A stretch of DNA of 64,000 nt from a virus. Made by a program: the position numbers and the translations under genes. Shown piece by piece: positions 1 to 49,800 of the stretch. The stretch is taken from the IMG/VR virus record IMGVR_UViG_3300032246_002821, positions 64,001-128,000 of that record. One strand, given 5' to 3'. Below the pieces are notes generated by a model that saw nothing but the letters and a program-made list of their open reading frames with translations, was not told the origin of the DNA and ran no database searches. How positions within the stretch are numbered: position 1 is the stretch's first letter; the number at the start of each line of letters is the position of its first letter.

Positions 1-1008
1 CTGGCCAATCGTGGACTGAGCCAGCTGCACGAGATAGAGCCAAACATGAACCTGTGTGACTATCCCGAAACGGACGAGGCTACCAGCGCACTGCTGAGTC
101 GTGGTGATGTGCTGGGTGTGACGCAGGGCGAAAGCCCAGCGATGCGTAGGTTGTTCCGCGCCATACAACCCAAGAGCCGTGCTGATTGCATCTTTGCCAC
201 GGCACTGATCAGACCAGTGGCCACTACCGGCAGACAGAAGGCCACGTTCTTCCACGACTTCACACAGGGCAGGCTCACGGACAACATCGTGTATGAAGAC
301 GATGCCATAGAAAAGATCAGCAGGCTCATAGGCTGTGATGCCAATGAGGCAGATATGTTTCGCCGTGCCTTCGCCAAGAAGAACGAGGAGCGTGTGCTGG
401 AATTCATGACACGTATGGGCGAGCATCCGGACAAGAAAAGCATCATCGATGAACTGTATCAGCTGGGCAACTTCGGCCTGTGTCGCGCACACGCTGTAAA
501 CCTGGGTAGGCTGATCTGGGCATTGGCTTATCAGAAGGCACATAACCCCAAAGCATTCTGGGCTGCCTGCCTCAAGCACTGTGAAGGCAGCTATCGCAAA
601 TGGGTCTACAAGAACGAAGCCAAGCTGTCGGGCTGGGACCTGAGAGAGCTGGGATACCACAACAGCATAATGAACGACCCTGTCTGGGAATTCAACAAAT
701 ATGGCTGGTGGGGAGCCAAGGAATTCCTGCCGGGCTTCTACTGTAGCGAACAATATATGGATCGTTACGAATTTGCCGGGCTCATAGCCAACGGTCGCGT
801 GTTCAAAGCAGACAAGGGCAAGTACATCACGTTCCTCACTCTGGGCGTAGGCAACGGCAAATACATAGATATCACGGTGAATAAACCCATATCTTATGCA
901 GATGCCGATGCTATAACCGGTGTGGGCAAGATGCGTATGCTCAACGGCACACAGTATCTGGAATGCCAGATAGTCAAAGCGGTCAAGCTGAAATCTATTG
1001 CTTCTTGA
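1..1008 (+). CDS. dnaE: DNA polymerase III alpha (family C, DnaE-like), C-terminal part; 5' end outside window
   Basis: Frame is open from base 1 (LANRGLSQL, matching the DnaE KxDxLGLRxL region). Contains GVxQxES, ALIRP, IVYEDD, EADMFRRAFAKK and FGLCRAHA..Y motifs, plus a C-terminal OB-fold-like segment (FAGLIANGR...FLTLG). Confidence 0.85.
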   Translation: MANRGLSQLHEIEPNMNLCDYPETDEATSALLSRGDVLGVTQGESPAMRRLFRAIQPKSRADCIFATALIRPVATTGRQKATFFHDFTQGRLTDNIVYEDDAIEKISRLIGCDANEADMFRRAFAKKNEERVLEFMTRMGEHPDKKSIIDELYQLGNFGLCRAHAVNLGRLIWALAYQKAHNPKAFWAACLKHCEGSYRKWVYKNEAKLSGWDLRELGYHNSIMNDPVWEFNKYGWWGAKEFLPGFYCSEQYMDRYEFAGLIANGRVFKADKGKYITFLTLGVGNGKYIDITVNKPISYADADAITGVGKMRMLNGTQYLECQIVKAVKLKSIAS

Positions 1009-2398
1009 TGTTGCTGAGCATCTGCTTGAGCCTGCTGCTGTCCACCGTTGCTGATATCTTACCCGGCTCATTGGCCACCACTGCATCTGTGTTGGGCTTG
1101 ACAACACTGCCTGTTTTTAGACTGTCATAGATGCTGCTGCTCTGCTTCTTGAACTGCTGATACTCACCGTCCTCGGCTAGATCTCTGATACGCAGGCTGT
1201 CTATGTCGAATTCCAGATCCACTTTCTGTCCCACGCCCGAACTGCTGCGTGTTTTCATTATCTGGATCTGGTACCTGCCGTGCTCGCGCATCGCACGACT
1301 GGTAAAGATGCCGAACAGGTTATCTGCTGTGTTGATCTTACTGATACCACCGGAAATGTGGCTGTGATCGAATTCCACTTCTTCCACACTGGCACGATTC
1401 AACTGGCTGGCTGTCACAAGCAACACATCCATCTCTTTGGCAAAGTTCCTGATCTCTTCGCTTACATATTTGTCCTTGATGAACAGATCGCTGGGACTGA
1501 CTTTGGCACTCACTGGCATCAGCAGATCCAGATAATCGATCATCACGAAGTCCACACGCTTGCCTGTGCGTATCTGTAGTTCTTTGATATATGCACGGAC
1601 ATCATTGATGGTGCTCTGCGCTGGCATATATTTGATCTGGAATTTACCAGCTTTCTTGCCCAGCATAATCACCTTCATTTCCACTGTTTCCAGGTCCTTG
1701 AATATCTCCCTGGCTGGCACACTGGTCAACATACTATCGATACGCATACTAGTGAGCTCTTCGCTCAGTTCCAGCGTGATGTAGACACCGTTCAGTCCAG
1801 CAAGCATCCAGTTACAAGCGATGTTCTGCATAAACAAGCTCTTGCCTGATCCGGATCCACCAGCAAAGATGTTGAGCTCGCCGCGATTGAATCCACCGAA
1901 CAGCTTCTTGTCCAGGCTGTTCCAGCCAGTGCTGATCTGACCGTTGCTGTCTTTCAGCTTCTGCAATCTAGCCACAGGATCCGCAAAATAATCCGTGCCC
2001 AGATCCTTTGTAAGGCTTATCTGCACCGCGTCCTTGATCAGTTTTTCCACTGGATCGAAATCGCCCTTTTCCAGCAGGTCCGCCGCTTTCAGGATTGCTC
2101 GTTCCAGTTCTTTCTGTTTGGTAAACTCTTCGAACTCTTCCATGAACCAGCTCTGATGATCTTCATTCAGTCCTGGTATCAGCTGGAAGTTGTTGCCTGT
2201 GACAGCATTGATCTGTTCTGGCACCGGCATAGTGGTATGTTCAGCACAATGCTTCTTGATGAACTCGGCCGCAGATTTGAGACTGCGATCGAAGTTGTCA
2301 GGATTATAGATGTTTTGTACACGTACATAAGTCTGGCTGTCAGTGAGCATCATCTCAATAAACAACTTCTGTACATCAGTGCTGAATGTTTTTGCCAT
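995..2398 (-). CDS. gp41: Replicative DNA helicase, T4 gp41/DnaB family
   Basis: Walker A AGGSGSGKS, YITLELSE, VMIDYLDL, TASQLNR and KTRSS motifs; adjacent to primase. Confidence 0.95.
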   Translation of the reverse strand: MAKTFSTDVQKLFIEMMLTDSQTYVRVQNIYNPDNFDRSLKSAAEFIKKHCAEHTTMPVPEQINAVTGNNFQLIPGLNEDHQSWFMEEFEEFTKQKELERAILKAADLLEKGDFDPVEKLIKDAVQISLTKDLGTDYFADPVARLQKLKDSNGQISTGWNSLDKKLFGGFNRGELNIFAGGSGSGKSLFMQNIACNWMLAGLNGVYITLELSEELTSMRIDSMLTSVPAREIFKDLETVEMKVIMLGKKAGKFQIKYMPAQSTINDVRAYIKELQIRTGKRVDFVMIDYLDLLMPVSAKVSPSDLFIKDKYVSEEIRNFAKEMDVLLVTASQLNRASVEEVEFDHSHISGGISKINTADNLFGIFTSRAMREHGRYQIQIMKTRSSSGVGQKVDLEFDIDSLRIRDLAEDGEYQQFKKQSSSIYDSLKTGSVVKPNTDAVVANEPGKISATVDSSRLKQMLSNIKKQ

Positions 2399-2405
2399 AA
2401 ATTAT

Positions 2406-2434
2406 AATATACGCTTTTTATTGTTGAAAGTCAA
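2406..2434 (-). promoter_or_regulatory. sigma70-like promoter upstream of helicase
   Basis: TTGACT-17bp-TATATT on minus strand, 8 nt before helicase ATG. Confidence 0.6.
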
Positions 2435-3435
2435 AACCATTTGCGGCTGTGCAAATTTATTTTCAATTGATTGTGTTGAGCACTGTTAATTATGCTTCGC
2501 ATAGTGAACAATCTGCCATACCTGGCACAGGCATCAGCAACATCCTTGATGCCTGGTTCCCAATCGGGAAATGCCACGCTCCAACCATATTTTATCGCAG
2601 CGTTAACCATAGCCCTGCCAGCAGCATCGCGATCAGGAACAACGATGATATCACGGTCCAGGCTCTCTATGACCTGTGCTTGTGCGGCGTTGATCTCATT
2701 GCTGCAGACGCCGATGGCATCGATACTGACCGCATCCAATAATCCTTCCACAACGATGACAAACTTGCGATCTCTGGTTTGACGATCATATCCCCAGACC
2801 ATATTGGCTGGATAGTTGCTGAGATATTTAACACGTTTGCTTTCCCCCGCAAACAGCCTGCCGCTATAACCCATGGGCTTACCCTGCCAGGTGAAAGGCA
2901 CCAGCACACGGTTACGCAGACCCGGATCATCTGTCCAGCAGATAAGATCCAGTTTGTCACCTAGCCCACGGCTGTCCAGATAATTCACAGCCTGTTCCAG
3001 GCTGTAATAGTTTTCTTCTGTGATGTGACCATCACAAAGCCAACTGTGGATGCTACGCCCAGGACAAGGCTCCCTGGCTTCATACACCGGCAATTCAGTC
3101 TTTTCTGGCGCAACATAAGCGTCATCGGTAAGTTGTGTGAGAGCGAATAGTGCCAGGCGGTTGACAGTGTCTTCCGCCATACCCATCCACTGCATCCAGC
3201 GGCGCATCTTGTAGCTGAGACGCCTGCCTGGTTGCCAGCCTGTGCTGAAATGGCAGTTGAAACAATGGTAAGTCAAACCACCTTCAGGGGTCATCATTAT
3301 GCCGCCACGACCACGATCATCAGGTCGCTGACCATTGTGCTGGCAACATACAGCATTGAAGCTGGTCCAGCCAGACGGCGTCGCCTTTTTCTTCCAGGGA
3401 AGATGCGACAAGATCTCTACGGTTATTTCCATCAT
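2431..3435 (-). CDS. gp61: DNA primase, T4 gp61-like (Zn finger + TOPRIM)
   Basis: CCxH...YHCFNC Zn-binding domain; VVEGLLDA and VPDRDAAG TOPRIM motifs; KDVAD. Confidence 0.93.
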   Translation of the reverse strand: MMEITVEILSHLPWKKKATPSGWTSFNAVCCQHNGQRPDDRGRGGIMMTPEGGLTYHCFNCHFSTGWQPGRRLSYKMRRWMQWMGMAEDTVNRLALFALTQLTDDAYVAPEKTELPVYEAREPCPGRSIHSWLCDGHITEENYYSLEQAVNYLDSRGLGDKLDLICWTDDPGLRNRVLVPFTWQGKPMGYSGRLFAGESKRVKYLSNYPANMVWGYDRQTRDRKFVIVVEGLLDAVSIDAIGVCSNEINAAQAQVIESLDRDIIVVPDRDAAGRAMVNAAIKYGWSVAFPDWEPGIKDVADACARYGRLFTMRSIINSAQHNQLKINLHSRKWF

Positions 3436-3456
3436 AAACAGATTATAACACTAAAA

Positions 3457-4263
3457 TCACGGTCTGTAAAGTATTTTTGTGAGACTACCGCTAGTGGTGG
3501 TGACGTGGAACCTGACCTGGCTGTATTTGCCTGGATTCAAGTTGAAATAATTGGTTCCTGTCAGATTGTTAACACTGACACTGTTGATGGTGAACCAGGC
3601 GTTGGGCAGACTAGTGGGAATGGGATCCAGGCTGCCCTGTGTCTCGATGGTGCCCACGAAAGCATTGCCATAATACTGTACTGTCTCTGTAACTGCACGG
3701 CTCTTGGTGCGATTGTTGACAATGATGACAGGTGTCAGCACCTGATTGGCATCGCTGTATCCATAGATGGCATTGCTGGCATTGTTGTAGAAAGGACCTA
3801 GATTGGGATTGTAACTGGCTGTGAATTGTGGATAGGCTTTGTCGCTGATGTAGCAGGTGCCCTGTGCGTTGTAATTGTCATCCGCATAGGCTATCTGTTG
3901 TTGGCCTTCACCGTTGGTCACGATAACGCTGTAGTTGTATTGGCCTGCCAGGATATCATCCAGCAACCTGCTTTCTAAGACAGTTGTGACAGTGCCTTTG
4001 GCGTTATAAACTATCTGCAGATTACGGCTGAATACCAATTCTTGATTACTGGGATCTATTAGATTAAATACAATCGTACTGTCCAACAGGCTTACAGGTT
4101 TTTGATCTGCATTTTTGATCAGTAACTGAAACTGGTTATCTACGCCCTTGTAGATTTGCAGAGGTTTGGCATACACTAGCTGATTCTCCCTGAAAGGTGT
4201 GAAGTCGGCATTCTTTACTACCGTGATAGATTGCTTATATAAATAACCCAGAATTGGTTGCAC
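3457..4263 (-). CDS. Putative virion structural protein (beta-rich)
   Basis: GTG start with AGGAG RBS and TAAATA late promoter (4282-4287); Asn/Thr-rich beta-strand composition. Confidence 0.5.
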   Translation of the reverse strand: MQPILGYLYKQSITVVKNADFTPFRENQLVYAKPLQIYKGVDNQFQLLIKNADQKPVSLLDSTIVFNLIDPSNQELVFSRNLQIVYNAKGTVTTVLESRLLDDILAGQYNYSVIVTNGEGQQQIAYADDNYNAQGTCYISDKAYPQFTASYNPNLGPFYNNASNAIYGYSDANQVLTPVIIVNNRTKSRAVTETVQYYGNAFVGTIETQGSLDPIPTSLPNAWFTINSVSVNNLTGTNYFNLNPGKYSQVRFHVTTTSGSLTKILYRP

Positions 4264-4289
4264 TTATTAGGACTCCTGTAATATTTATT

Positions 4290-4658
4290 ATGATTTCCAT
4301 AGAACAAATGCTTGAACAATACCCGTTTCTCAGTTATATCAAATATACTCATTCTGACTACATAGGTGTTATACAAAACCACGATACCGATCTCGTCAGT
4401 ATGTATGCCTTTAATAAATTACGTACGGAAGATCACAAGCGTAGATTCCTGGAACAGGCCGATGTCTGGTGGTGGGAGAGCAACCGTATGATACCCATCA
4501 ACATCTTTTTGAAAGAAGGTTGGAATGAATTCCGTTACAGCACAGTGACACTTACCTGCAAAGATATACAGGAACAACAGGGTCACATCGTAAGCATCGC
4601 AAAACTAGCCGATCGCAGGACCAAACGCAGGGTGGTACAGTTGGTCAGGAAGATGTGA
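4290..4658 (+). CDS. Hypothetical phage protein
   Basis: ORF with WWWESNR motif; TATAAATA at 4238-4245 upstream; ATG start chosen at 4290 (track start 4254). Confidence 0.6.
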   Translation: MISIEQMLEQYPFLSYIKYTHSDYIGVIQNHDTDLVSMYAFNKLRTEDHKRRFLEQADVWWWESNRMIPINIFLKEGWNEFRYSTVTLTCKDIQEQQGHIVSIAKLADRRTKRRVVQLVRKM

Positions 4659-5205
4659 GCAGGTTCATATGGACCACCACTAGCTGAGCATATCCATATG
4701 CGTGTGCCTTCTTAAAATAGTACCCTTCAGGCGGTTTGATCCATATCTCATCATTGATCTGTCGCCAGGTCTTGCCTGCCAAGTACCGTTTGCTGGGCCT
4801 GATCAATGCCAGCACCATCGCCAGCTTGTCCATTGTATCTGTAAAATGCTGCTGTAACAGGTCATAATGACCATTCAGATGGATCAGTTTGCCAACAAAC
4901 TCTGGATCGCGTAGTCGTGACCAATCTGGATCGCTAGCAAGCAACCGATCAAGATGAGCATTATCGTGTATCTGATTATAAACGTGTACATTTAAAATAT
5001 CCAGTTTTATATATCCCAGCTGTTCTGCTGTATGATAATCCATATTACACAAACCAGTCAAAGGATCAGCTGGCACAGGATTCACATAAATGCCTGTGTT
5101 GTGTTTGCTTATGGTATCATCTCTATACATACTGGCTGGTGTGTGTTCTATCAAACGTAATAGTTTGTCACGGTCACCCACATCTATGTCAATGTCAAAA
5201 CTCAT
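4645..5205 (-). CDS. Minimal family-C DNA polymerase (DnaE palm-like, 186 aa)
   Basis: FDIDID, KHNTG, YIKLDIL, ALIRP and YFKKAHAYGY motifs in DnaE order; no PHP or OB domain. Confidence 0.8.
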   Translation of the reverse strand: MSFDIDIDVGDRDKLLRLIEHTPASMYRDDTISKHNTGIYVNPVPADPLTGLCNMDYHTAEQLGYIKLDILNVHVYNQIHDNAHLDRLLASDPDWSRLRDPEFVGKLIHLNGHYDLLQQHFTDTMDKLAMVLALIRPSKRYLAGKTWRQINDEIWIKPPEGYYFKKAHAYGYAQLVVVHMNLLTSS

Positions 5206-5392
5206 CTATGGCCTCTTGTTGATCCTTAAGGGTAGGCAAACGATACTCGGTCCAGCCACGTCGCATCATATCACAAAGCCAATGCCATTCACCCTTTACA
5301 AAGACCGGATACCAGAGGAACACCAGCCTCCAGCGCAGTTCTTCTGGTATGCTGTAGTCATATTTGCTGCTGCTGGGATGTGGTCCTCTCAT
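5195..5392 (-). CDS. Small hypothetical protein
   Basis: Translationally coupled ORF inside the operon. Confidence 0.5.
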   Translation of the reverse strand: MRGPHPSSSKYDYSIPEELRWRLVFLWYPVFVKGEWHWLCDMMRRGWTEYRLPTLKDQQEAIDEF

Positions 5393-6129
5393 AGTCCTGC
5401 CTGCTCCAATATGTGTTTGGTCATCGCCGTATCTGCCGGATAATCTTGTATCTTACGCTGCCAGAATTCCGGATCTATCCAGCGTATTATAAGACCTATC
5501 TGCTCGTCTGTCAATGTTTCCATCTTCTCGATACCGCTTTCGCTGCAATATATCACCCAGGGACTGATGCGACCATTCTGCACGTGCAACACAAACCTGC
5601 TGTTGCTGATAACACGGAAATAGTCGCTAAACTCCGGTGGTTGTTCTGGTTGTTGCGCTTCTTCCGACCATTCCTGCATGGTCAGTATGCTGCGTTCCAG
5701 TGCATCTGTGGCAGATTCGGTACGCATCAGCTGGAACAGATAGGCATCATACACCTTGTCCTGACACCAGCGATCGATCTTGATCTGTTGTTTCAGTACA
5801 TAATCCATGAACTGATTGGTATTGATGGCATTGATACTGACGCAATGTCTACCGAACTTGACGAAAGCGTTGTAGAACTGGTTCTTGCAGAAATCGTCAT
5901 ACGTTTTCAGCTTGGCTGATCCCTGTGTGATCTCATAGAATCTCAGCCAGGCAGCGAATCCGATCTGCACACCTTTCTCGCCTTTCTGTTGGGCGCGACG
6001 TTTGGGCTCACACTGATGTACAGCCAGCGTGGTTTCCTTGGCGAATCCCTGCCCACAATTACGGCATTTATGTTCGCCCGGCTTGACATCTGCCGCTGCT
6101 TCACGTATCAATTTGTGTAATTCACTCAC
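5389..6129 (-). CDS. Zn-finger protein, possibly gp59-like helicase loader
   Basis: N-terminal CxxC-x12-HxC; C-terminal VQNGRISPWVIY resembles T4 gp59 LQSNIISFETF; located in the replication operon. Confidence 0.45.
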   Translation of the reverse strand: MSELHKLIREAAADVKPGEHKCRNCGQGFAKETTLAVHQCEPKRRAQQKGEKGVQIGFAAWLRFYEITQGSAKLKTYDDFCKNQFYNAFVKFGRHCVSINAINTNQFMDYVLKQQIKIDRWCQDKVYDAYLFQLMRTESATDALERSILTMQEWSEEAQQPEQPPEFSDYFRVISNSRFVLHVQNGRISPWVIYCSESGIEKMETLTDEQIGLIIRWIDPEFWQRKIQDYPADTAMTKHILEQAGL

Positions 6130-8448: not shown

Positions 8449-9120
8449 TCATTTTCCTTTGTTTTTATATGTTTGTAAAAAGGGATATAATACCCAATTG
8501 GTTTCTCTGTATGATTTTATAAATTGCTTTGTCTGATCGCTCACTGGTAGATTCGTGATATCAGCAATGATATTTTCCAGATTACTGGTAGTGGAAAATA
8601 TATCCTTGAACGATATATTGTAGTCGGAAGGTATTTCAGTATGTAGATGATAATCTATCAACCGGGAATAACCGAATTGGAAAATCTCTTGGTTCAATAC
8701 TGGGTCTGAGAAATCATATTGGTTCACATCTAACTGTTTCTGATTTTTTATCAACCGGTACAGTTTGTGAGGCCAACTACGCATCAGTATGGGATTATTT
8801 TTGATGGTTTTCAACCAATACAGATCGCTGATGTTCTGCACATCGTCCTGGTCGAACGAGACATTGATTATTCGCCTGAGGAATCTTTCTTGTAAAAATT
8901 CCACATCCACACAGTTAGTGATCATTATATGATTTCTATCAATCAGATCTGCATTGTGTAGATTTATTTTCAGGTTGCTGACTGCTGGATTAGTAAAATC
9001 CATGCTGCCATCCATATTCATTTGCAACTTACAATCATCTATGGTAGCTATGATCAGGTTAGCTATGAAAGTACCAGCCGCACCACCTGGATATATCACC
9101 ATATAGTCACTTATTTTCAT
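8449..9120 (-). CDS. AT-rich hypothetical protein, possible sulfotransferase-like fold
   Basis: N-terminal YPGGAAGTFI loop and C-terminal ISFKDI; paralog of 7261-7944. Confidence 0.45.
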   Translation of the reverse strand: MKISDYMVIYPGGAAGTFIANLIIATIDDCKLQMNMDGSMDFTNPAVSNLKINLHNADLIDRNHIMITNCVDVEFLQERFLRRIINVSFDQDDVQNISDLYWLKTIKNNPILMRSWPHKLYRLIKNQKQLDVNQYDFSDPVLNQEIFQFGYSRLIDYHLHTEIPSDYNISFKDIFSTTSNLENIIADITNLPVSDQTKQFIKSYRETNWVLYPFLQTYKNKGK

Positions 9121-10571
9121 TTATACGTGACCTTTTCCTGTGTGAAGGGATAATTGGCTTCGCGGTAGAACTGCTTGCGCTGTGTGAGATGTCGCTTGGC
9201 GAACTTGCAATCGGCAGTTATGTCCCAGATCTGGACGAAGTCCTTGTCCTCAGCTTTGCGGATGCCACGTCCAATAGACTGGATAACTCGGACAAAGCTC
9301 TTTCCCGGCTCCAGCAGTACAAGATTAAAAATACGAGGAATGTTAATACCCACAGCAGCAACTCCATAGGTAGCGACAATAATCTTTCCAGTACTGGTGG
9401 CAATTTCCGCATATTCTTCCTGCCTGTCTTTGTCCTTCATTTCGCCCGATACGAACACGCTGTCCGGCAGCCTAGACACCAGTTCCTCTCCTGCGCTGAT
9501 GCGATCCACCAGCACCAGTGTGTTACCTGTCTTGTTGATCTGTGCGATCAAACCTGACAGATAGTCCAGCCGGTCGCTGTTGGTAGTCAGGTACTTGAGT
9601 TCGTTCTGATAGTTGGTGAATGCGCTGTGCTCTGTGGTCTGCACTATGTTCACGTGGCAGTTGGCCAGCACACCTTTGTCTTGTAGTTCTTTGGCACTGA
9701 GCTGTCCTATGACATCGCCCAGGCTGACTTTCAGTGCCACTTTTTCAAAGTCCTGCTTGGGTATGGTCCCGGTGAGCCCCCAACGGATGGGTATATCTCC
9801 CATGACACCAGTGAGCAGTGTCTTGAGCGCATCAGCTTTGGCCATATGCACTTCGTCCACTATCACACATACCACACCAGCTAAAAATTCCTGTATTGTC
9901 ACATCGGCTTCGTGGTTCTGTGTGTTTTTCAACATTATGTTCAGGCTTTGCCAGGTGCATATGGTATGCGTCTTGCCCAGCTCTTTGCGATCACCGAAGT
10001 AAACACCTGCATCCAGTTCCAGATTTTTGTAGTCTTTCTCGGTCTGTGTCACAAGGCTTTTGTTGGGCACGATCACGATACTGCGCCCATAGGGCTCGAC
10101 CATATTGCTCAGTGCAGCAGTCATTATTGTCTTGCCAGCACCAGTTGCCACCTCTTGCACACACTGCGGATTTTCCAGGAAGCGATTGATGATATCGATC
10201 TGATAGTCGCGCAACACTATGGGTTTACCAGCTTCAGGATGGCCTACTGGCCACACCTTATGGCTGAATGTGTCTTCGTCCACCTGGTTAAATTCAAAGG
10301 GATCACGTGCAGGACGCTGATCCTCCAGTTCGAAGTCCCAGTTACGTTCGCTCAGATACTCTATGATCTCTGGCAAGTGATTTACAAAACCGCTGCCGCC
10401 CAGCTGGAAATAGGCCTGCTTGCCATCCCATCGGCCCAGTCTTACAGCTGGCAAGTGCCTGGCATTGGGCACTTCATACTTGAACTTTGTGACAAGGCGA
10501 CGCCTAGTGTCCAGATCCAGGCCTTCGATCTTGCAGTTGACTTCGTCTTTGATAATGATTTTACACAGCAT
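9117..10571 (-). CDS. uvsW: UvsW-like SF2 DNA helicase
   Basis: LRDYQ, ATGAGKT, VDEVH, GLTGT, GINIP and QSIGRGIR motifs; start corrected to 10571. Confidence 0.93.
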   Translation of the reverse strand: MLCKIIIKDEVNCKIEGLDLDTRRRLVTKFKYEVPNARHLPAVRLGRWDGKQAYFQLGGSGFVNHLPEIIEYLSERNWDFELEDQRPARDPFEFNQVDEDTFSHKVWPVGHPEAGKPIVLRDYQIDIINRFLENPQCVQEVATGAGKTIMTAALSNMVEPYGRSIVIVPNKSLVTQTEKDYKNLELDAGVYFGDRKELGKTHTICTWQSLNIMLKNTQNHEADVTIQEFLAGVVCVIVDEVHMAKADALKTLLTGVMGDIPIRWGLTGTIPKQDFEKVALKVSLGDVIGQLSAKELQDKGVLANCHVNIVQTTEHSAFTNYQNELKYLTTNSDRLDYLSGLIAQINKTGNTLVLVDRISAGEELVSRLPDSVFVSGEMKDKDRQEEYAEIATSTGKIIVATYGVAAVGINIPRIFNLVLLEPGKSFVRVIQSIGRGIRKAEDKDFVQIWDITADCKFAKRHLTQRKQFYREANYPFTQEKVTYK

Positions 10572-10614
10572 TACTATCCAATATAATGGTTTTAGATTAC
10601 AAATACGATAAAAA

Positions 10615-10634
10615 AACACCGCTGTTGCGGTGTT
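10615..10634 (-). terminator. Rho-independent terminator
   Basis: AACACCGC-TGTT-GCGGTGTT hairpin followed by a T-run on the minus strand. Confidence 0.7.
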
Positions 10635-24354: not shown

Positions 24355-24816
24355 TTAATTGATTTGTATATCTTCCATACCAGCCACACGCAATTTCACT
24401 ATACTGCTCATTTGCCACTGTTTGCTGTCCAGACCCTTCATAATACCCAGCCAGCGATTACGCAGTAATGCCACTTCGTTTATGATGGTTTCGAAATCAA
24501 TAACTTCCGGTTCACCGTCCACATATTTCTCTGCATCACGGCTGGTCAATGCCCGGGCATAATGCTCCAGATACTTCTGGAAATGTTTACGGCGTATCTG
24601 TCTCAGTTGGATATTGAGATAATTCAATACTGCTTCGATCTCTTGTAGCTGATTGAATCTGTGTTCGGTTATACCAGGCAATGCGCTGATGCTTTTTTCC
24701 ACGTTTCCGCTCACTCTCACATCAGCTTTGGCACGATCCAGTTCAGCCTCATAGTGTGCTATGAAGTCCGGAATATTGGCCAAATTTTGTGTAACCCTGG
24801 TGTACCAATTGCTCAT
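24355..24816 (-). CDS. uvsY: UvsY recombination mediator
   Basis: Helical 153-aa ORF with YVDGE and GIMKGLDSK, downstream of UvsX. Confidence 0.8.
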   Translation of the reverse strand: MSNWYTRVTQNLANIPDFIAHYEAELDRAKADVRVSGNVEKSISALPGITEHRFNQLQEIEAVLNYLNIQLRQIRRKHFQKYLEHYARALTSRDAEKYVDGEPEVIDFETIINEVALLRNRWLGIMKGLDSKQWQMSSIVKLRVAGMEDIQIN

Positions 24817-25055
24817 TCATCAAAATCTTCTTCAGATTCCTCTAGATCCATATGTTCGCTGATGGCATTTTCCATTATCTTGTCCACTGCCATCTCTTGT
24901 AGATCGCGATCATCGATTCCCAATTCCACTAGTTCATTTATAACATGATCTGCTGCAATTTGTCTATCTTTAGCAGGAATGTATTCTTTCACAGTCTGCC
25001 AAAATTGTGTTAGCAATTCGCCACTATCACTCATCAATATTATCCTCTGGTTCAA
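24813..25055 (-). CDS. Small acidic hypothetical protein
   Basis: Coupled between uvsX and uvsY. Confidence 0.6.
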   Translation of the reverse strand: MNQRIILMSDSGELLTQFWQTVKEYIPAKDRQIAADHVINELVELGIDDRDLQEMAVDKIMENAISEHMDLEESEEDFDE

Positions 25056-26097
25056 TTAAAACTCGCTGTTTGCCAAGTTCGGCATACTTAGCACCAAACT
25101 CTTGCATAACCACATCTAATTTGTCGTCTGTCCAGCCTTTGCGGAACTCCTTGATAATTTCACCAGTTACTGGGCTAGTATAGCTGAGCTTGTTGCCATC
25201 CTTTACCAACATGCCCTGTGACTCGAACATCTCCAACAGTCCCGAATATGGGCTCATTCCAGTGCTATAGGGAATCTTTACCTGCACACTCTCGAAAGGT
25301 TTGGCATATCGGGTTTTCATGACCTTGCAAGCAGCGCGAATGCCATTTACCTCTGATGTCTTGTTGCCATCCTCATCTTCTTTCAGCTTGAGCTTACGCA
25401 TAGCAACCACGATGCTACTGGCATAGATAAAGCCCTGACCACCTGAGATCTTGTCATCAGGATCGAACATATCCTGTGATGCATAGGTGTGATTGGTAGC
25501 CACGATACCGATGTTCAAGCTGCCGATCATATTCACCGTGTTACGCACCAGGCTTGTCAGTGCTTTAGGCTTACGACCCATATCACCCTTCATATCACCA
25601 GCTTCAAACTGGTTAACGTCAGTGGGTGTGAGCAACATACCCAGGCTGTCTATAACGAACAGCACCTTGGGACGATCTTCTATGGATAGTGCCTTGTAAC
25701 CTTTGATAAATTCACTAATGGTCTTGGCCACATCATCGATCATAGCCATGTTAAGTTTCAGCAGTTTATCTTCGCTGGTGTCCACGCCCAGTGCTTTGAG
25801 CCAATCTTCATCCAGAGCATTTTCGCTGTCGATCAGGATCACATAGATGCCCTGCTCTTGTGCGTTCTTGACGATGTTGCCTGAGCAAATGTAGCTCTTG
25901 CCTGCACCAGATTCACCAGCGAACACTGTGACCTTGCCCAGTGGGATGCCACGATTAAAGCTGCCTGAGATCAGGTAATTAAGTGTGTAATTGCCAGTGC
26001 TGACCCAATCTGTGGGATCATTGTATCCGATGCTGAGTCCATCGATACTCTTGGTTAAGTCTTTTCTGAATTTACTGATGTCGAAAGGTTTTGCCAT
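25027..26097 (-). CDS. uvsX: UvsX/RecA-like recombinase
   Basis: AGESGAGKS, IDSENA, VIDSLG, NHTY and SGGQG motifs. Confidence 0.95.
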   Translation of the reverse strand: MAKPFDISKFRKDLTKSIDGLSIGYNDPTDWVSTGNYTLNYLISGSFNRGIPLGKVTVFAGESGAGKSYICSGNIVKNAQEQGIYVILIDSENALDEDWLKALGVDTSEDKLLKLNMAMIDDVAKTISEFIKGYKALSIEDRPKVLFVIDSLGMLLTPTDVNQFEAGDMKGDMGRKPKALTSLVRNTVNMIGSLNIGIVATNHTYASQDMFDPDDKISGGQGFIYASSIVVAMRKLKLKEDEDGNKTSEVNGIRAACKVMKTRYAKPFESVQVKIPYSTGMSPYSGLLEMFESQGMLVKDGNKLSYTSPVTGEIIKEFRKGWTDDKLDVVMQEFGAKYAELGKQRVLIEPEDNIDE

Positions 26098-26138
26098 TGT
26101 TTTTTCCTATGTGTGTATTATACTGTATATTGTCGCGT

Positions 26139-26912
26139 TCATAAAGAAAGAAATAGATTATTTTCAATATTTTTTGCGAATAAAGATCTGACTTTGCTCA
26201 TATCATCTGAGAAATTACCCAGTGGTATTTCCGTACCTGTGGGTTTGACATTTTTTGCTGTACAAAAATCCAGATACTCTTGAGGCAGAGCAAGCGTGTA
26301 GGGCCGAGACAGATTGAATTCCAGTTTACCGCCCAGTTTTTCATAACAGTTGGTATCTATGTCGAGAACATTGTCATCATAGTTCTGCCATTTATTGAAT
26401 GTGCATCTGCCCAGGTTATCATAATTGATTATGATGTTGAATTTACCCAGAGCCATCAGCTCGCTGTCATAAGGGTTGTCTATCTGCCACAGTTCCTGAT
26501 CATAATTTTTGTAAACAAAATAAAACATTTTTTCGATATGATGGCACAAGTGATTGACCTGATCAAATTCATAAGCTACGCCAGCTCGTGCAGCCAGGAT
26601 ACCAATGTTGGGATATTTGATGTACAATTTCACCCATTTTTCGTGTAATCTGTTGATGCTGTTTATATCTGTACAATCACTGCCCAAATCAAAAGGTTCC
26701 AATTTGCATTTCTGTAAAAATGAATTGGCCTTGGCCAGCACCTGATGCATTAGTGCAAACTTGTCTGTTTGAAAAAGTGTTTCATCTGGATGCAGGGTAA
26801 ATGTATTGAAAGCCTGTAGGCTAGTGATATAATATTCCACTATACCATAATACGCAGGAGATATAGGAATGAAGTCAACATAATCACCTGAATTTTGCCA
26901 CACCACTTTCAT
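26139..26912 (-). CDS. AT-rich hypothetical protein
   Basis: 257-aa ORF with AGGA RBS, inserted between gp32 and uvsX. Confidence 0.6.
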   Translation of the reverse strand: MKVVWQNSGDYVDFIPISPAYYGIVEYYITSLQAFNTFTLHPDETLFQTDKFALMHQVLAKANSFLQKCKLEPFDLGSDCTDINSINRLHEKWVKLYIKYPNIGILAARAGVAYEFDQVNHLCHHIEKMFYFVYKNYDQELWQIDNPYDSELMALGKFNIIINYDNLGRCTFNKWQNYDDNVLDIDTNCYEKLGGKLEFNLSRPYTLALPQEYLDFCTAKNVKPTGTEIPLGNFSDDMSKVRSLFAKNIENNLFLSL

Positions 26913-26932
26913 AGAGATTTCCTAATAAAGAT

Positions 26933-26954
26933 GCGGGGTAGTTTCCTACCCCGC
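26933..26954 (-). terminator. Terminator after gp32
   Basis: GCGGGGTAG-GAAA-CTACCCCGC hairpin. Confidence 0.7.
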
Positions 26955-26962
26955 TTTATAAT

Positions 26963-27985
26963 TTAGGCAGTTTTACGGTTCCGGATCATAGCCAGGATTT
27001 CTGCTGCCCTGTCATTACCACCGGCCTTAGGAACGGCTGTGGTAACGGGTGCGGTTGCAGCCGCAACTTCGTCATCGGTCTCGAATGGGACCGAGTCGTC
27101 TACATCAGCAACCGGTGCAGGTGCTGATGCTGGACGAGCAATGGTCGCTGGGCGGGCAGCTGGTACATCATCTGTATCAGCATTGGAGTTGCCCCCCAGT
27201 CCGGCTGGTTTAAAATATTGTCCCCAGCGGCTTTCATCATATGTGGCACCATCCACTGATGCCTCAAACATTTCCTTCATGATCTTGAGCTCTGCACCTC
27301 CGGGCTTCTTGGGAAGGAATTCGCTCAGGTTATGTAAACCATACGCTTCAATAGCAGCACGTTCTGCCTGTGTCAGAGCCGACTCTTTGCGAGCCCACTT
27401 GCTGGTGGCATAATCTGCATACTGACCTTTGCTGGTCTTTGTGATGCTGAAGTCCAGTCCACGATCGAAATCTGTGGGCAGTTCTTCGATATCAGGATCT
27501 TTCAGTGCAGCGATGATCAGCGGATAGATGCTGGGGCTCACAACGAAACGACGGATGGGATTTTCAGGAGTGGTATCGTCAGCCAGTGGGTTATCACGCA
27601 CAAAACCCTGGAACACATAACTGCGCTTCTTCCAATACTTTTTGCCCATATCTTCCAGGCTCTTGTCCTTGAACCAGGTACGTACCTCGGTCAAGATCGG
27701 ACAAGTTTCGTTCCACATCTCAACGCAAGGGATCTGGACTGTCACAGGCTTGCTGTTCATCTGTCCTTTGATGCCTGCAAATGGCAAGCGGATCATCGCA
27801 CGTTCCACCCAGAAGAAGTCGTTCTTAGTGTCACCATCAGGCAAGAACCTGATACGTGCTGTGCTACCTTCTGGGATATTCCAATGTGGGTAAATTGCGT
27901 TGTCGCGACCGCCGCCGTTGTTGTTTCCGCCTGCGCGGTTCTCTTGTTGTGCAAGTTTTGCACGGATTTCTGCCAATGAAGCCAT
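26963..27985 (-). CDS. gp32: Single-stranded DNA-binding protein, T4 gp32-like
   Basis: RIRFLPD, CPIL, YWKKRSY and YATSKW motifs; acidic Ala/Pro-rich tail. Confidence 0.9.
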   Translation of the reverse strand: MASLAEIRAKLAQQENRAGGNNNGGGRDNAIYPHWNIPEGSTARIRFLPDGDTKNDFFWVERAMIRLPFAGIKGQMNSKPVTVQIPCVEMWNETCPILTEVRTWFKDKSLEDMGKKYWKKRSYVFQGFVRDNPLADDTTPENPIRRFVVSPSIYPLIIAALKDPDIEELPTDFDRGLDFSITKTSKGQYADYATSKWARKESALTQAERAAIEAYGLHNLSEFLPKKPGGAELKIMKEMFEASVDGATYDESRWGQYFKPAGLGGNSNADTDDVPAARPATIARPASAPAPVADVDDSVPFETDDEVAAATAPVTTAVPKAGGNDRAAEILAMIRNRKTA

Positions 27986-37567: not shown

Positions 37568-39154
37568 TTAGAAGATGACAATCGGCATAGGTGGTATGAT
37601 CTCACTTTTATCCACCTGTAGGCTCTGGCTCAAGCTGGCATCGTATTGTCTCAGATGCAGAATGATACGCACAGCCAACAGTGTAGCACTGACAAGATCG
37701 TCGGTTTCTCCTATTTTTGCCATATAACTGTTGCCGCTAGCAACAAAACTCTTGAGCTCGCTTATGAGGTTCTTGCTGTATATCTTAAGTTTATTTGTTT
37801 CCATCCACAGTTTGAACTTGCTGCAAGCTGCCAATTTGGTGCTGTTCGTAGTTGTGAAACCCTTGCGATATCTTCGTCCTGCTCCCATGGCTTTGGGCTC
37901 GCTGAGGAAGTCACCGGGTATATTTTCTTCTCCTAGATCTGCGATAGCCATCAGTGCCGCCTCGCCTATGGTGTTGTTTTCCACACTGTAATACAAGTTA
38001 GTTGGGTCATTGGTGATTCCCGCGATATATTTGCATATCTCTGACAATATACCTATCTGTTTTTGTATGGGTGTGAGGTTATGTTGCCATTCGGCCACCT
38101 GTTTCATAGTTGTGGCATTGAAAACTTCGATAGCACTGGGATCACCCCCTGTACCCAAGCTGGGATCCAGAGCTACCACGTATACGTTGCCCTTGACTGG
38201 CTTTTCATACCATCTGACCTGGCCCTGTTTCTCGATGGGATCTATTCCCACCATATCTACCAACACACTAGGTGCAATCAGTGTTTCGTCATAGATGATA
38301 AATTTGCAGTTATTCTCACGTTCGAATCTGTCGTCGCCCACGCTGGCTCTTTCTCTGGCTGCCCATTTCTCATCCCGTTCAGGATGTCTGTCCCAGGTCG
38401 CCAGGAAAGCACTAAATCCATTACGTCCTATCTGGGTTGTATTGCCGAATTCGTCGAAACACTTGTTGGCTTCTTTCCATATAGTAGCGAACATATCCTC
38501 ATCACTGTTGGGTGTGCTGGTGATGATGGCCTTACCACCTGTAGATAGTGTAGGGCTGATGGATGTCCAGAATTCTCGAGCGATAGTAGGTCTGACGAAC
38601 GCCAACTCGTCACAGTACAGCAGTGAGATACTCATACCACGTCCGGTTGTTTCGGTAGTGGTAGCTGACACTATACGACTGCTATTGTCGAAACCAATGT
38701 TGCCCTTGTTGTAGTCCACAACACCCGCCCGGATGTGGTCAGGCACGTTTTCATAGGCAAATCTGATACGCTGCATAATTTCCTGTGCGCCGGTGAACTT
38801 GTTGCTGGCCACAAGTATTGTGCTGTCTGGAATAAACATAGCATACCATAACAGATATCCTGATGCAACAGTGGTCTTGCCCATCTGACGACCCAGCATA
38901 TTGATGCTGAAGCGATTGTTATGATAGTTGTTTAACAGTTCTTCCTGATAGTCGTAAGGTTGAAATTGTTGTCTGCCTCTGGTAGGATGCTGGATATAAA
39001 AGAAATTTCTCAGGAAATAATCGCAACCGGTTTCGGGATCAGCACAGAGACTGAATTCCAATAATTCCTGTTCGCTCATCTTAGTGCGCTTATAGGCTTT
39101 TTTTACTAGTACGCCATCTAAACTTTTTTGGGCCATAAAGATATTTATTGACAT
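37568..39154 (-). CDS. gp17: Terminase large subunit, T4 gp17-like
   Basis: RQMGKTT Walker A, LLYCDELAF, IITSTPN, RNase-H-like VALDPS and DDLVSA. Confidence 0.96.
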   Translation of the reverse strand: MSINIFMAQKSLDGVLVKKAYKRTKMSEQELLEFSLCADPETGCDYFLRNFFYIQHPTRGRQQFQPYDYQEELLNNYHNNRFSINMLGRQMGKTTVASGYLLWYAMFIPDSTILVASNKFTGAQEIMQRIRFAYENVPDHIRAGVVDYNKGNIGFDNSSRIVSATTTETTGRGMSISLLYCDELAFVRPTIAREFWTSISPTLSTGGKAIITSTPNSDEDMFATIWKEANKCFDEFGNTTQIGRNGFSAFLATWDRHPERDEKWAARERASVGDDRFERENNCKFIIYDETLIAPSVLVDMVGIDPIEKQGQVRWYEKPVKGNVYVVALDPSLGTGGDPSAIEVFNATTMKQVAEWQHNLTPIQKQIGILSEICKYIAGITNDPTNLYYSVENNTIGEAALMAIADLGEENIPGDFLSEPKAMGAGRRYRKGFTTTNSTKLAACSKFKLWMETNKLKIYSKNLISELKSFVASGNSYMAKIGETDDLVSATLLAVRIILHLRQYDASLSQSLQVDKSEIIPPMPIVIF

Positions 39155-46874: not shown

Positions 46875-49800
46875 TTAAGCGCCTAAACCTACACTTGGCG
46901 TTGTATTGCTCAATCCACCTTGGTTGGGATTGGTACCAGCAATAGCCCCTGTGTTCAGGATACGCACCGGTACGTAGATAAATTCCACAGCCTTGGTTGG
47001 TTCGATAGCGATATCGATGTGCAATTCATTACGGTCGATGGTTGATGGTGTGTTGTTTGTGGTATCGCACACAACCAAGTAATCATAGATACCGCGTTGT
47101 GCCACCACATCATTCAACAATCCTTCGATAGCCTGCTTGGCTTCGTTACGAGTGATGGTATCATTGGGTTCGAACACCAGAGGCTTAACCAGACGTTCCA
47201 GATTGTAACGCAGGTAGTTGATCAAACGTGCCACATTGATACGATCCAACGCTGTGGCAGTCGCCTGGCGTGTATGGTTACCATAGTTCAGGATACCTTC
47301 TGTCGGGAACACTGCCACTGGATTCACGTTGTTTTCGTAAAGCAGATCACGTAGTCCCTGGTTGGTACCGATGCTGACAAACTTGCCTGAGGCACGATCC
47401 ACATATCCGATCTTGCTGACGTTGTCGATCTTACCACGAATCGTTCCAGCTGGTGCGAACCAAGGATGGCTGTTCTGGTCTGATTTAACGATCATACGCA
47501 GGATAGCGTGTGTGATTGGCACAACAACTTGTCCTACTCCATCCAATGCATTGGTATAAGCAGCACCTGGGTAGAATGTACCCACGAAACTGTCATTTAT
47601 GCTCAGTCCTTCTTCATTTGTGTTGGCCACTGAAGCAGTGTTCATCACATAATTGCTGACACTTGTTAAATCGTTGCTCAGGCCCATCGGGCTGTCTGCA
47701 AGGATGAATGCTGTATTGCGTCTGTCATTGTTCAATGTCACTAGGTTATGTGTCAACTCAGGATAACCTGGGCAAACCATAAGATTGAAATGACGTTGAT
47801 CTTCTCTGGCCATATCATTCAAATCGACCGCTTCAGCCAATTTGCTTACAACAACATTACGCACAGCCTTACGACCAAAGTATGGAACACTATTCTGGTC
47901 TTTGCCGCTCAAACTCTGCCAAGTGCTTGTGTAATCCGGCAGGGTGTTGAGTGGGTAGCTGGTGCTGTTGAATTTATCTGCAACATAAGTTTTAACGTTG
48001 AAGCTGCTGCGGCGTGTGTTGAACAACAGTGTACCACGAGGATAGATCTGAGGATTAGGTGCATCCAGATCCACGTGATCGCTTGTCAACAGACTAACGA
48101 TAGTGGGTTTGGTTCCCAGCGCAGGATCTACCATACCTCCAGCGATTGTGCTGGCGATGTCCCAACGAGCATCTGCAAACACTATACCATTTTCACTAGT
48201 GTGATCAGTGTTGTCTATTGCTACCCACTGATCTGTGCCGCTCACACGCTGCCAACGATAGATCATTGGATAGTTTTCCAAATCGCTAGTGTCCACCCAA
48301 ATGTCGCCGTAAACCAATGCAGTGCCATCGCTTTGTTTTGTTGGCGCACTCGCTTGGATGAATGGTCCCAGAGGATCGGTATTGGACAAGTTATAACCGC
48401 GGCTGTCGCTGGTCACATTGTGATAACCTTTCCAGATCGTACCATTGCTGACCATGATGTCCACTTCCAGCGGACTATTGTAATACCAGATGGTGCCATC
48501 TGGAGGTGCAATCACTGGTGCTGTGCTTTGCTGATATAGATCACTTGCATCTGCCCATAAACTCGCTGCTATCTTATTGGATCCAGCATCTATCATATAA
48601 GGTGTTGTGCTACTCGCACCATTCACACCAGCAACAGTGAATCCTGCTGTGGCTAGCGGAGTGTTAGTACCATCAGTGAATCTTATCTGACCACCAGTTG
48701 TATGTGTGAACACTATGTGACCTGTGCTGTCCAAACTGCAAGTCAAATATGGGATATTTTTAGCCAACACATCTGTGACAAAACTGCTTGCTGTTGTGCT
48801 GCTTAGTGTAACAGTCACGCCAGCGGTATAAGAGTTTGAACCAGGATTGGTCATTTCTATGGTAAATGTGCTGCTGGCTGTGAATGTGGGATTGGCTGTG
48901 GAACCAGTGACACTAGTGATGCCAGTACCAATCCTTTGGAACACTTTGAATGTGGCAGTAGATGCCACGTTTACATCATACATTATGTATAGTGTATCTT
49001 GGGCAATACCCAGACCACCTAGACTTGGATCCAACTGGTAGAGTGCTTCGCGAGGACCTGAGTAGATCGGAGTCGGAATCAATACCCACTGGCTAGTGGC
49101 ACTGTTCCAACGATATACTGGAATGCTCGCGCCATTATTGACAGCAGTCGTTTTGATCCAAACGCTGCCGCTGGGAGCAACCGTACCACCATCTGTGCTT
49201 TTCCATAATGGCACATTATAGTGATTGGCAAAAGTGAACTGTGCTGCATAATATGTGCCCGGACCGGTCCAACCACCAGCTGGATTGGTGCCAGCTGTGT
49301 AACTACCAAAGATAGCAGTCAGTGGTGTGTTGCTGCTGTTAGCGATAGCAACCTTTCCATCCACAGTGCTACCATTACTCCTAGCAAGGCTTGTGGCAAA
49401 AATGTAAAAATAACCGTTGACATAAGCAGCGGTAACACCAGGAATCGCGGCATTGTTGATCTGAGTCGCAACATTGCTTGCACTACCAGTGCTTGCAACA
49501 GTAATAGTAGTACCATTGATGGTAAATGCGTCGTTAGCTGTGACGTTTGTGCTTTGAACGTTACTGCGGAATGCAGGTGTTTTGGCCTGCCAGGCAGTGC
49601 TGCCTACCAGGTTCCAGCTGTTGTCATATGCTTTCTGATAGATGGGATTCTTAACGTCAGTGCTTACCACAGCGAATTGGCCCACAGTACCTACAGTGGT
49701 CTTGGGCACAGTTTGTCCGCTGACAAGGTCACTTGTGCTAGTGATAGTGATAGGTGCCTGTAAATTGAATGTAGGATTCGGTGTTGAACTGAAATCCTGG

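Follow-up and report, generated by a model that had tools for sequence, protein, structure and literature searches.

Among the described replication systems of phages, the closest to the one presented here is the split minimal DNA polymerase III (Pol III) alpha found in jumbo phages of group 2.2, which resemble RaK2, Atu_ph07 and PA5oct (Iyer et al. 2021, Viruses 13:63, PMC7824862). In these phages the enzyme is encoded in two parts, an N-terminal subdomain binding the nucleoside triphosphate (NTP) and a C-terminal subdomain binding Mg2+ and the template, and it co-occurs with a family B polymerase. Phages with this mini version were said to hold no other Pol III domains. We analyzed a window of 64,000 nucleotides, bases 64001-128000 of a linear viral contig of 182,953 bp from IMG/VR (IMGVR_UViG_3300032246_002821, here named G000), which has a CheckV completeness of 54%. 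The window starts with a helicase-primase module that is flanked by two genes for C-family polymerases, here named mini-DnaE and DnaE567.

Mini-DnaE (P0002; 4645..5205, minus strand) is a protein of 186 amino acids (aa) and a member of the C-terminal (Mg2+/template) subunit family of split minimal Pol III alpha, known since 2021. DnaE567 (P0001) is a compact DnaE of 567 aa without the PHP domain, and the 3' 335 codons of its gene lie in the window (1..1008, plus strand). A sequence-only reading of the window had proposed that helicase and primase are flanked by two different genes for C-family polymerases on opposite strands, which was confirmed by motifs, Pfam and PHROG matches. It had also suspected that small Pol III modules were already noted in the comparative genomics of jumbo phages, and this is borne out by Iyer et al. 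2021 (PMC7824862). We consider it probable that mini-DnaE is one half of a split small polymerase and that DnaE567 is a separate accessory polymerase. As far as found, the presence of both mini-DnaE and a compact PHP-less DnaE in the same module is a new detail and a modest extension of known biology. No paper describing this pairing was found in the literature searched, and a survey of marine jumbo phages goes no further than noting frequent PF07733 in one phage cluster. The 2021 statement on the absence of other Pol III domains needs qualifying, since the clade studied here carries DnaE567 in addition.

The translation of mini-DnaE begins with MSFDIDIDV, i.e. at the DxD strand, and its motifs are arranged in DnaE order: D4-I-D6-I-D8, K34-H-N-T-G38, K67-L-D69, A133-L-I-R-P137 and F164-K-K-A-H168-A. 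The codons of K67-L-D69 (4999..5007, minus strand) represent the KxD motif with the third catalytic aspartate, and K67 and D69 are both invariant; we take their counterparts in E. coli DnaE to be K553 and D555. Within the codons of D4-I-D6-I-D8 (5182..5196, minus strand) D6 and D8 align with the metal ligands of the DnaE DxD motif, presumably D401 and D403 of the E. coli enzyme (established numbering, Lamers et al. 2006). Additionally, mini-DnaE retains the arginine of the IRP motif and the 'steric-gate' histidine of the KxH motif. A Shine-Dalgarno sequence, AGAGG, is located 6 nt upstream of its ATG.

Mini-DnaE gave no match to Pfam, and a phmmer search against PDB sequences remained without a match even at an E-value of 10, so that the likeness to polymerases of solved structure emerged by fold comparison only. 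The AlphaFold2 (AF2) model reached a mean predicted local distance difference test score (pLDDT) of 90.3 and placed the KxD motif in the strand E67-72. All top 17 Foldseek matches of this model were Pol III alpha or PolC. With VIA-align, 15 Pol III alpha/PolC entries were obtained with Z scores from 9.2 (root-mean-square deviation (rmsd) 5.2 A, 185 residues aligned) down to 6.1, rmsd values of 4.2-5.4 A and 153-185 aligned residues, while the next row was an unrelated entry with Z 3.6. The alignment spans model residues 1-186 versus residues 399-778 of E. coli DnaE. A comparison of a predicted model with E. coli DnaE, which the sequence-only reading had suggested, thus yielded a confident model that matches Pol III alpha and PolC. 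According to this model the protein would comprise the second half of the DnaE palm and the base of the fingers.

The spacing of the motifs indicates which parts of a DnaE are missing. From DxD to KH there are 26 residues in mini-DnaE and 81 in the 567-aa protein (thumb), and from IRP to AHA about 30 and about 92, respectively (finger tips), whereas the distance from KxD to IRP is similar (about 66 and about 72) and no part is affected. Judged by these distances, the thumb and finger-tip subdomains are deleted in mini-DnaE. Here, the motifs of both proteins were mapped by eye; a comparison of the C-terminal unit (C-unit) with the DnaE567 profile by hhalign gave a low-probability local match (14.7%) in which DxD was mis-registered owing to the thumb insertion. 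Also missing from mini-DnaE are the GRGS loop and the elements with which the Pol-beta-like fold begins. In ternary complexes of DnaE, the incoming nucleotide is bound through its triphosphate by the GS loop.

A Pol-beta-like palm, the carboxylates of DxD and KxD, the IRP arginine and the KSH/KAH histidine are common to the two window proteins, the cellular DnaE of E. coli, T. aquaticus and M. tuberculosis (PDB 2HNH, 2HPI and 5LEW) and PolC (3F2B). The GS loop, thumb and fingers of these enzymes are shared by the 567-aa protein only. In contrast to the cellular enzymes of 1100-1400 aa, both proteins are devoid of PHP, and no clamp-binding, OB or tau-binding domain was detectable in them by sequence; mini-DnaE additionally is without GS loop, thumb and finger tips. 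The earlier description of the short protein as one that keeps the catalytic carboxylates in DnaE order, without PHP, thumb, finger-tip, clamp-binding and OB parts, therefore holds.

Mini-DnaE matched PHROG 11778, annotated as 'DNA polymerase', with an E-value of 7.5e-57 (residues 3-184 versus profile positions 7-192 of 197). By tblastn, full-length homologs with 36-46% identity were found in 96 GenBank phage records, among them Atu_ph07, Phosso, PA5oct, RaK2, K64-1, CBB and GAP32. The listed records all exceeded 280 kb with the exception of two partial Klebsiella records. In a large protein collection 1276 homolog clusters were present at E<=1e-3, nearly all of 185-200 aa, and at least 582 loci were found in IMG/VR. 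Homologs in the loci that we fetched ranged from 180 to 220 aa. Fused longer forms did not occur among proteins of 327-2000 aa, which is weak evidence for their absence. Mini-DnaE proteins with 65-67% identity (P0031, P0036 and P0055) are encoded on metagenome contigs of 328-348 kb.

In an alignment of 22 diverse homologs extending down to 51% identity, 12 residues were invariant, namely D4, D6, D8, H35, N36, G38, K67, D69, R136, P137, K165 and H168. Nearly all of them were conserved to at least 97% in 100 sequences from the fetched loci, and all 12 were unchanged in each of the 16 mini-DnaE copies from loci that carry DnaE567. Pairwise ratios of nonsynonymous to synonymous substitution rates (dN/dS) were 0.09-0.14; the family is under purifying selection. 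These data bear on the possibility that a full-length dnaE has left the 186-aa open reading frame (ORF) as an inactive or decaying remnant. Its length, one sixth of that of a cellular DnaE, and the missing Pfam match could be read in this way, but a constant length over 1276 clusters, invariant catalytic residues, the low dN/dS, a confident fold prediction and a good ribosome-binding site make a remnant extremely unlikely. Decay had been named beforehand as the result that would speak against a functional mini-protein; the constant length and the dN/dS values show that the gene is not decaying.

Mini-DnaE corresponds to the C-unit of the split enzyme of Atu_ph07 (gp074 and gp316; Iyer et al. 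2021) in its motifs, its start at the DxD strand, its length and its neighbourhood of primase and helicase genes. In Atu_ph07 the genes of the C-unit (gp074) and of the N-terminal unit (N-unit, gp316) are about 180 kb apart. Similarly, in G001, a complete IMG/VR genome of 354 kb, the two units map to about 255 kb (C-unit) and 140.5 kb (N-unit), and in relatives generally the N-unit genes sit tens to more than 100 kb from the C-unit gene. In total, Atu_ph07 and 25 IMG/VR records, G001 included, were found to contain an N-unit.

The N-units have a length of ~170 aa and end with ...G-x-G-R-G-S-x-V-x-S...E-F-L-[KRE]. Their residues 95-169 align to residues 27-98 of the 567-aa protein (hhalign 82%). 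The N-unit thus ends just before the DxD strand, where mini-DnaE begins, and mini-DnaE is consequently without the GS loop. A complex prediction for the cognate N- and C-unit of G001 gave an ipSAE of 0.90 in each of three runs, compared with 0.00 for the best control. Of 78 solved complexes 51 attained this mark, as did 2 of 108 mismatched pairs. The runs agreed in at least 97% of contacts, the partner pLDDT was at least 89 and the interface comprised about 170 contacts. However, the halves represent adjoining parts of DnaE, for which structures are solved, and the pass may therefore reflect likeness to single-chain DnaE. The predicted complex of the G001 pair thus speaks in favour of reconstitution of an enzyme from both units, but is not a demonstration of it. 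As an indication of whether the surface facing the partner is retained, the entropy of predicted interface and non-interface positions of mini-DnaE was 0.86 and 1.08, respectively, in DnaE567-bearing loci (p 0.08, not significant) and 1.10 and 1.42 in the others, a similar pattern with the catalytic residues as a confounder.

The sequence-only reading had regarded the mini-protein as a self-sufficient nucleotidyltransferase. In favour of a 186-aa protein that acts alone as a minimal non-replicative enzyme of this kind alongside primase and helicase, the three catalytic aspartates and the steric-gate histidine are invariant and the gene is always part of the primase/helicase module; moreover, the N-unit was not found in this contig. 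Yet the protein is without the triphosphate-binding GRGS loop and the first Pol-beta-like fold elements, and in relatives these missing parts reside on the separate ~170-aa protein, which is equally widespread in IMG/VR (at least 457 loci versus at least 582 for mini-DnaE). This protein ends where mini-DnaE begins and is predicted to dock on it by the large interface described above, possibly via DnaE likeness, and the genome region expected to hold it is unsampled in G000. On this evidence an independent role of the 186-aa protein is very unlikely, and this part of the earlier proposal was not upheld. The functions that it had suggested, such as primer extension, hand-off and gap filling, are conjectural, as is a comparable suggestion by Iyer et al. 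2021.

If mini-DnaE is half of a split polymerase, the N- and C-units would assemble into one active site of the Pol-beta type, and the pair would act as a small DNA-dependent DNA polymerase. Its substrates would be deoxynucleoside triphosphates (dNTPs), as suggested by the steric-gate position of the KxH motif, where the histidine is invariant. Probably the split enzyme would assist a T4-like replisome in which a family B polymerase is the main replicase. In the phage studied here both the N-unit and the family B polymerase may be encoded in the unsampled ~46% of the genome, as judged from its relatives. The literature searched contained no biochemical test of either the split enzyme or the 567-aa form.

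The complete DnaE567 gene spans G000:63305-65008 (L003:9305-11008) and starts 696 bp before the window. Two Pfam families were matched, DNA_pol3_alpha (PF07733) with 5e-40 (138.1 bits, cut-off 23.9) and DNA_pol3_finger (PF17657) with 6e-15 (55.4 bits, cut-off 22). The protein aligns to residues 312-787 of E. coli DnaE and 385-845 of T. aquaticus DnaE in the PDB, which cover palm, thumb and fingers. Its motifs are TRGSAGSS (GS loop), PDVDIDF, KHCGG, KID, ALIRP and CRAHA, and R68-G69-S70, D109, D111, K229 and D231 were invariant in an alignment of 11 sequences. A PHP domain was not detected by Pfam, and the position aligned to E. coli DnaE 312 is preceded by about 20 residues. DnaE567 is hence a complete PHP-less DnaE, distinct from mini-DnaE, with GS loop, DxD, KxD, thumb, fingers and a C-terminal part that is beta-rich in a model of low confidence.

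Beyond residue about 423 no Pfam or PDB sequence match was obtained, and none extended past the fingers. The AF2 model computed from the 11-sequence alignment had a low confidence (pLDDT 58) and showed beta-strands at about 480-560. Look-alikes of the C-terminal part in the ESM Atlas with HHH_6 or OB families scored only 0.85-0.87 and are leads only. The OB-like tail that had been suggested for the longer protein is accordingly possible, as far as the model goes. The nearest ESM Atlas clusters of residues 425-567 (window about 577-1005; 0.92-0.95) consisted of viral hypothetical proteins of 172-188 aa without a Pfam family, which might correspond to the C-terminal part of compact phage DnaE as proteins of their own.

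Homologs of DnaE567 with 65-93% identity were present in at least 95 IMG/VR loci, and the initial idea of a rare lineage-specific gene was dropped for this reason. Among 1.84 billion representative proteins, 623 clusters were related at E<=1e-30, and about 40 of these clusters, of 540-600 aa, align end to end. Relatives of 900-1180 aa (P0155-P0157, P0170, P0173-P0176 and others) match from about residue 400-630 onward and thus carry a large extra N-terminal part, perhaps PHP or another domain. Wherever the helicase is contained in a locus, DnaE567 adjoins this DnaB-like gene, usually in convergent orientation. Beyond the helicase follow the primase, the virion-like ORF, orf134, mini-DnaE and orf246.

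DnaE567 was not found in any cultured relative whose neighbourhood or whole record was searched, including both the neighbourhood and the whole record of Atu_ph07. It is also absent from G001, in which the helicase gene and the next conserved ORF are immediate neighbours. The loci L014 and L015 can be aligned on both flanks with about 70% nucleotide identity. In L015 no more than the 1.7-kb DnaE567 gene is missing, a clean presence/absence of a single gene (L014:12935-14696 versus L015:5904-5930). In a large set of environmental relatives DnaE567 forms a conserved insert of one gene, placed where the helicase gene has its 3' end. Since a close relative, L015, lacks this gene alone, DnaE567 is better explained as an accessory enzyme than as the sole replicase.

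Several results weigh against a split polymerase with an N-unit partner in this phage. The N-unit was not found in the 183-kb contig, where searches with PF07733, phmmer, tblastn and a hidden Markov model (HMM) built from five N-units returned the 567-aa protein only, and no family B polymerase (PF00136) was detected there. Neither of them was found in five other DnaE567-bearing records (10-38% complete). N-unit and DnaE567 never occurred in the same record, and DnaE567 was missing from all 21 long records with an N-unit that were searched, of which five had a completeness of at least 90%. That the phage has an N-unit partner is therefore suggested by its relatives only. The 165 fetched mini-DnaE and DnaE567 loci gave only weak N-unit matches, all to the DnaE567 gene itself, and no N-unit locus close to G000 was found, i.e. 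none with more than about 60% identical proteins.

The ORFs of G000 map, largely collinearly, to G001 195-351 kb only. In G001 the family B polymerase is located at 102-104.5 kb, the clamp loader at 138 kb, and a GroES-like gene, the N-unit and MazG at about 140-141 kb; the block of clamp loader, GroES-like gene, N-unit and MazG is common to G001 and Atu_ph07. No homologs of these five G001 genes were found in G000. The absence of N-unit and family B polymerase from the contig carries little weight, since the flanking block falls into the unsampled part of the genome. A family B polymerase (PF00136) is present in G001, in Atu_ph07 and in LR756508.1, an uncultured phage genome of 484 kb.

The same absences could, on the other hand, indicate that the DnaE567 clade was rebuilt around C-family enzymes. 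DnaE567 would then have replaced the family B replicase, or the N-unit would have been lost and mini-DnaE would have another role beside or together with DnaE567. Besides the six DnaE567-bearing records without N-unit and family B polymerase and the 21 N-unit-bearing records without DnaE567, the stronger conservation of DnaE567 across the clade fits this idea (65-72% identity versus 41-53% for mini-DnaE; dN/dS of DnaE567 0.03-0.04). However, each of the six records is a fragment with a completeness of 10-54%, all of them come from one and the same half of the genome, and the loss of DnaE567 alone at the same site in L015 fits poorly with an essential replicase. Furthermore, LR756508.1 carries a homolog of DnaE567 together with a family B polymerase, and mini-DnaE retains all catalytic residues in the DnaE567 clade. 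We therefore regard such a rebuilding as unlikely.

Taking DnaE567 as an accessory polymerase, it would work with the adjacent helicase and primase. By analogy it possibly extends primers before hand-off, as DnaE of B. subtilis does. The latter, together with the primase DnaG and the helicase DnaC, extends primers that are handed off to PolC (Rannou et al. 2013, PMC3664799). Common to both cases is a second C-family polymerase tied to helicase and primase beside the main replicase; the functional analogy concerns the 567-aa enzyme only. In contrast to DnaE567, DnaE of B. subtilis has a PHP domain, and the main replicase in the phage relatives is of family B and not PolC.

Compared with other phage enzymes annotated as 'DnaE-like DNA polymerase III alpha' (Streptomyces, Pseudomonas, Stenotrophomonas phages and others; PHROGs 405, 11165 and 12219), the 567-aa protein aligns over palm and fingers with 25-31% identity. 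With 1190 positions, the PHROG 405 profile is far longer. The sole GenBank phage with a full-length DnaE567 homolog was LR756508.1 (38.6% identity), in which the family B polymerase is present and the split units were not found. As a further difference from this group of phage enzymes, DnaE567 of G000 is located by the DnaB-like helicase in a T4-like jumbo phage with the mini enzyme. With the phages of the split minimal Pol III alpha G000 shares a T4-like jumbo phage genome with UvsW/X/Y, gp32 and DnaB-like helicase, but in G000 and at least 95 environmental contigs a complete palm-thumb-fingers DnaE is found in the same module.

A large group of uncultured jumbo phages thus combines the split mini enzyme with a separate 567-aa PHP-less DnaE in one helicase-primase module, and two naturally minimised C-family polymerases are available for comparison. 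Among the C-family polymerases proposed, the split minimal Pol III alpha is the smallest, and it was put forward as a model of the ancestral enzyme, so each confirmed and strongly conserved mini-DnaE member is a candidate for bench testing of the split enzyme. The arrangement also raises the question why up to three polymerase systems are held in a T4-like replisome, which bears on the division of labour at phage replication forks.

Between the two polymerase genes, the module contains four further ORFs. A DnaB-like replicative helicase of the T4 gp41 type (995..2398, minus strand; Pfam DnaB_C 1e-21, PHROG 19 1.5e-71) shares an overlap of 14 nt with DnaE567 at the 3' ends of both genes. It is followed by a Toprim/DnaG-type primase of the T4 gp61 type (2431..3435, minus strand; PHROG 47 5.4e-27), for which the Toprim_2 match was weak (21 bits, slightly below the cut-off of 22.1 bits). 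Next to it a conserved 268-aa ORF, virion268, is located (3457..4263, minus strand; PHROG 14467 8.6e-13), with a virion structural annotation according to PHROGs and to gp072 of Atu_ph07. The conserved 134-aa orf134 (4254..4658, plus strand) matched PHROG 11637 with 1.4e-30, to which no function is assigned. It is convergent with mini-DnaE and overlaps its 3' end by 14 nt, and this position and orientation are kept in nearly all related loci.

On the other side of mini-DnaE lies orf246 (5389..6129, minus strand; PHROG 11058 9.9e-59), which encodes a conserved protein of 246 aa. A single C2H2-type zinc finger is located at its residues about 18-40 and was matched by C2H2 fingers of the PDB down to an E-value of 3.6e-6. 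In most of the ~100 related loci orf246 is the upstream neighbour of mini-DnaE and often adjoins it directly. The protein may be a DNA-binding accessory of the split polymerase; it is not mentioned by Iyer et al. 2021 (PMC7824862). A 65-aa ORF is inserted between orf246 and mini-DnaE (5195-5392, minus strand). It is conserved among the nearest relatives, with 88% in L008 and 44% in L018, and is missing in more distant loci, where orf246 and mini-DnaE are directly adjacent. It is probably a small real gene.

The gene order orf246, mini-DnaE, orf134, virion268, primase and helicase is kept in about 100 loci, and the synteny check that the sequence-only reading had asked for thus showed a retained primase/helicase neighbourhood. 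The gaps between the virion-like ORF, primase and helicase range from ~30 bp to 7 kb among relatives (L013:12749-14371, L087:12049-16771, L089:6113-13272), which suggests repeated insertions, possibly of mobile genes.

A megablast search of the region against GenBank phages revealed no close match. The contig carries a T4-like replication and recombination set, consisting of DnaB-like helicase, Toprim primase, UvsW-like helicase, UvsX, UvsY and a gp32-type single-stranded DNA-binding protein (SSB), as well as a large terminase and a long tail sheath. Within the window, this ordinary T4-like jumbo-phage content (UvsW-like helicase, UvsY, UvsX, gp32-type SSB, large terminase and tail sheath of 1124 aa) is located at 9117-10619, 24355-27985, 37568-39154 and 46875-50249. 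Finally, a PD-(D/E)XK-type exonuclease (PHROG 298, E-value 6.6e-54) is encoded 4.5 kb upstream of the 567-aa DnaE at L003:4114-4812 on the minus strand, which corresponds to G000:58114-58812.

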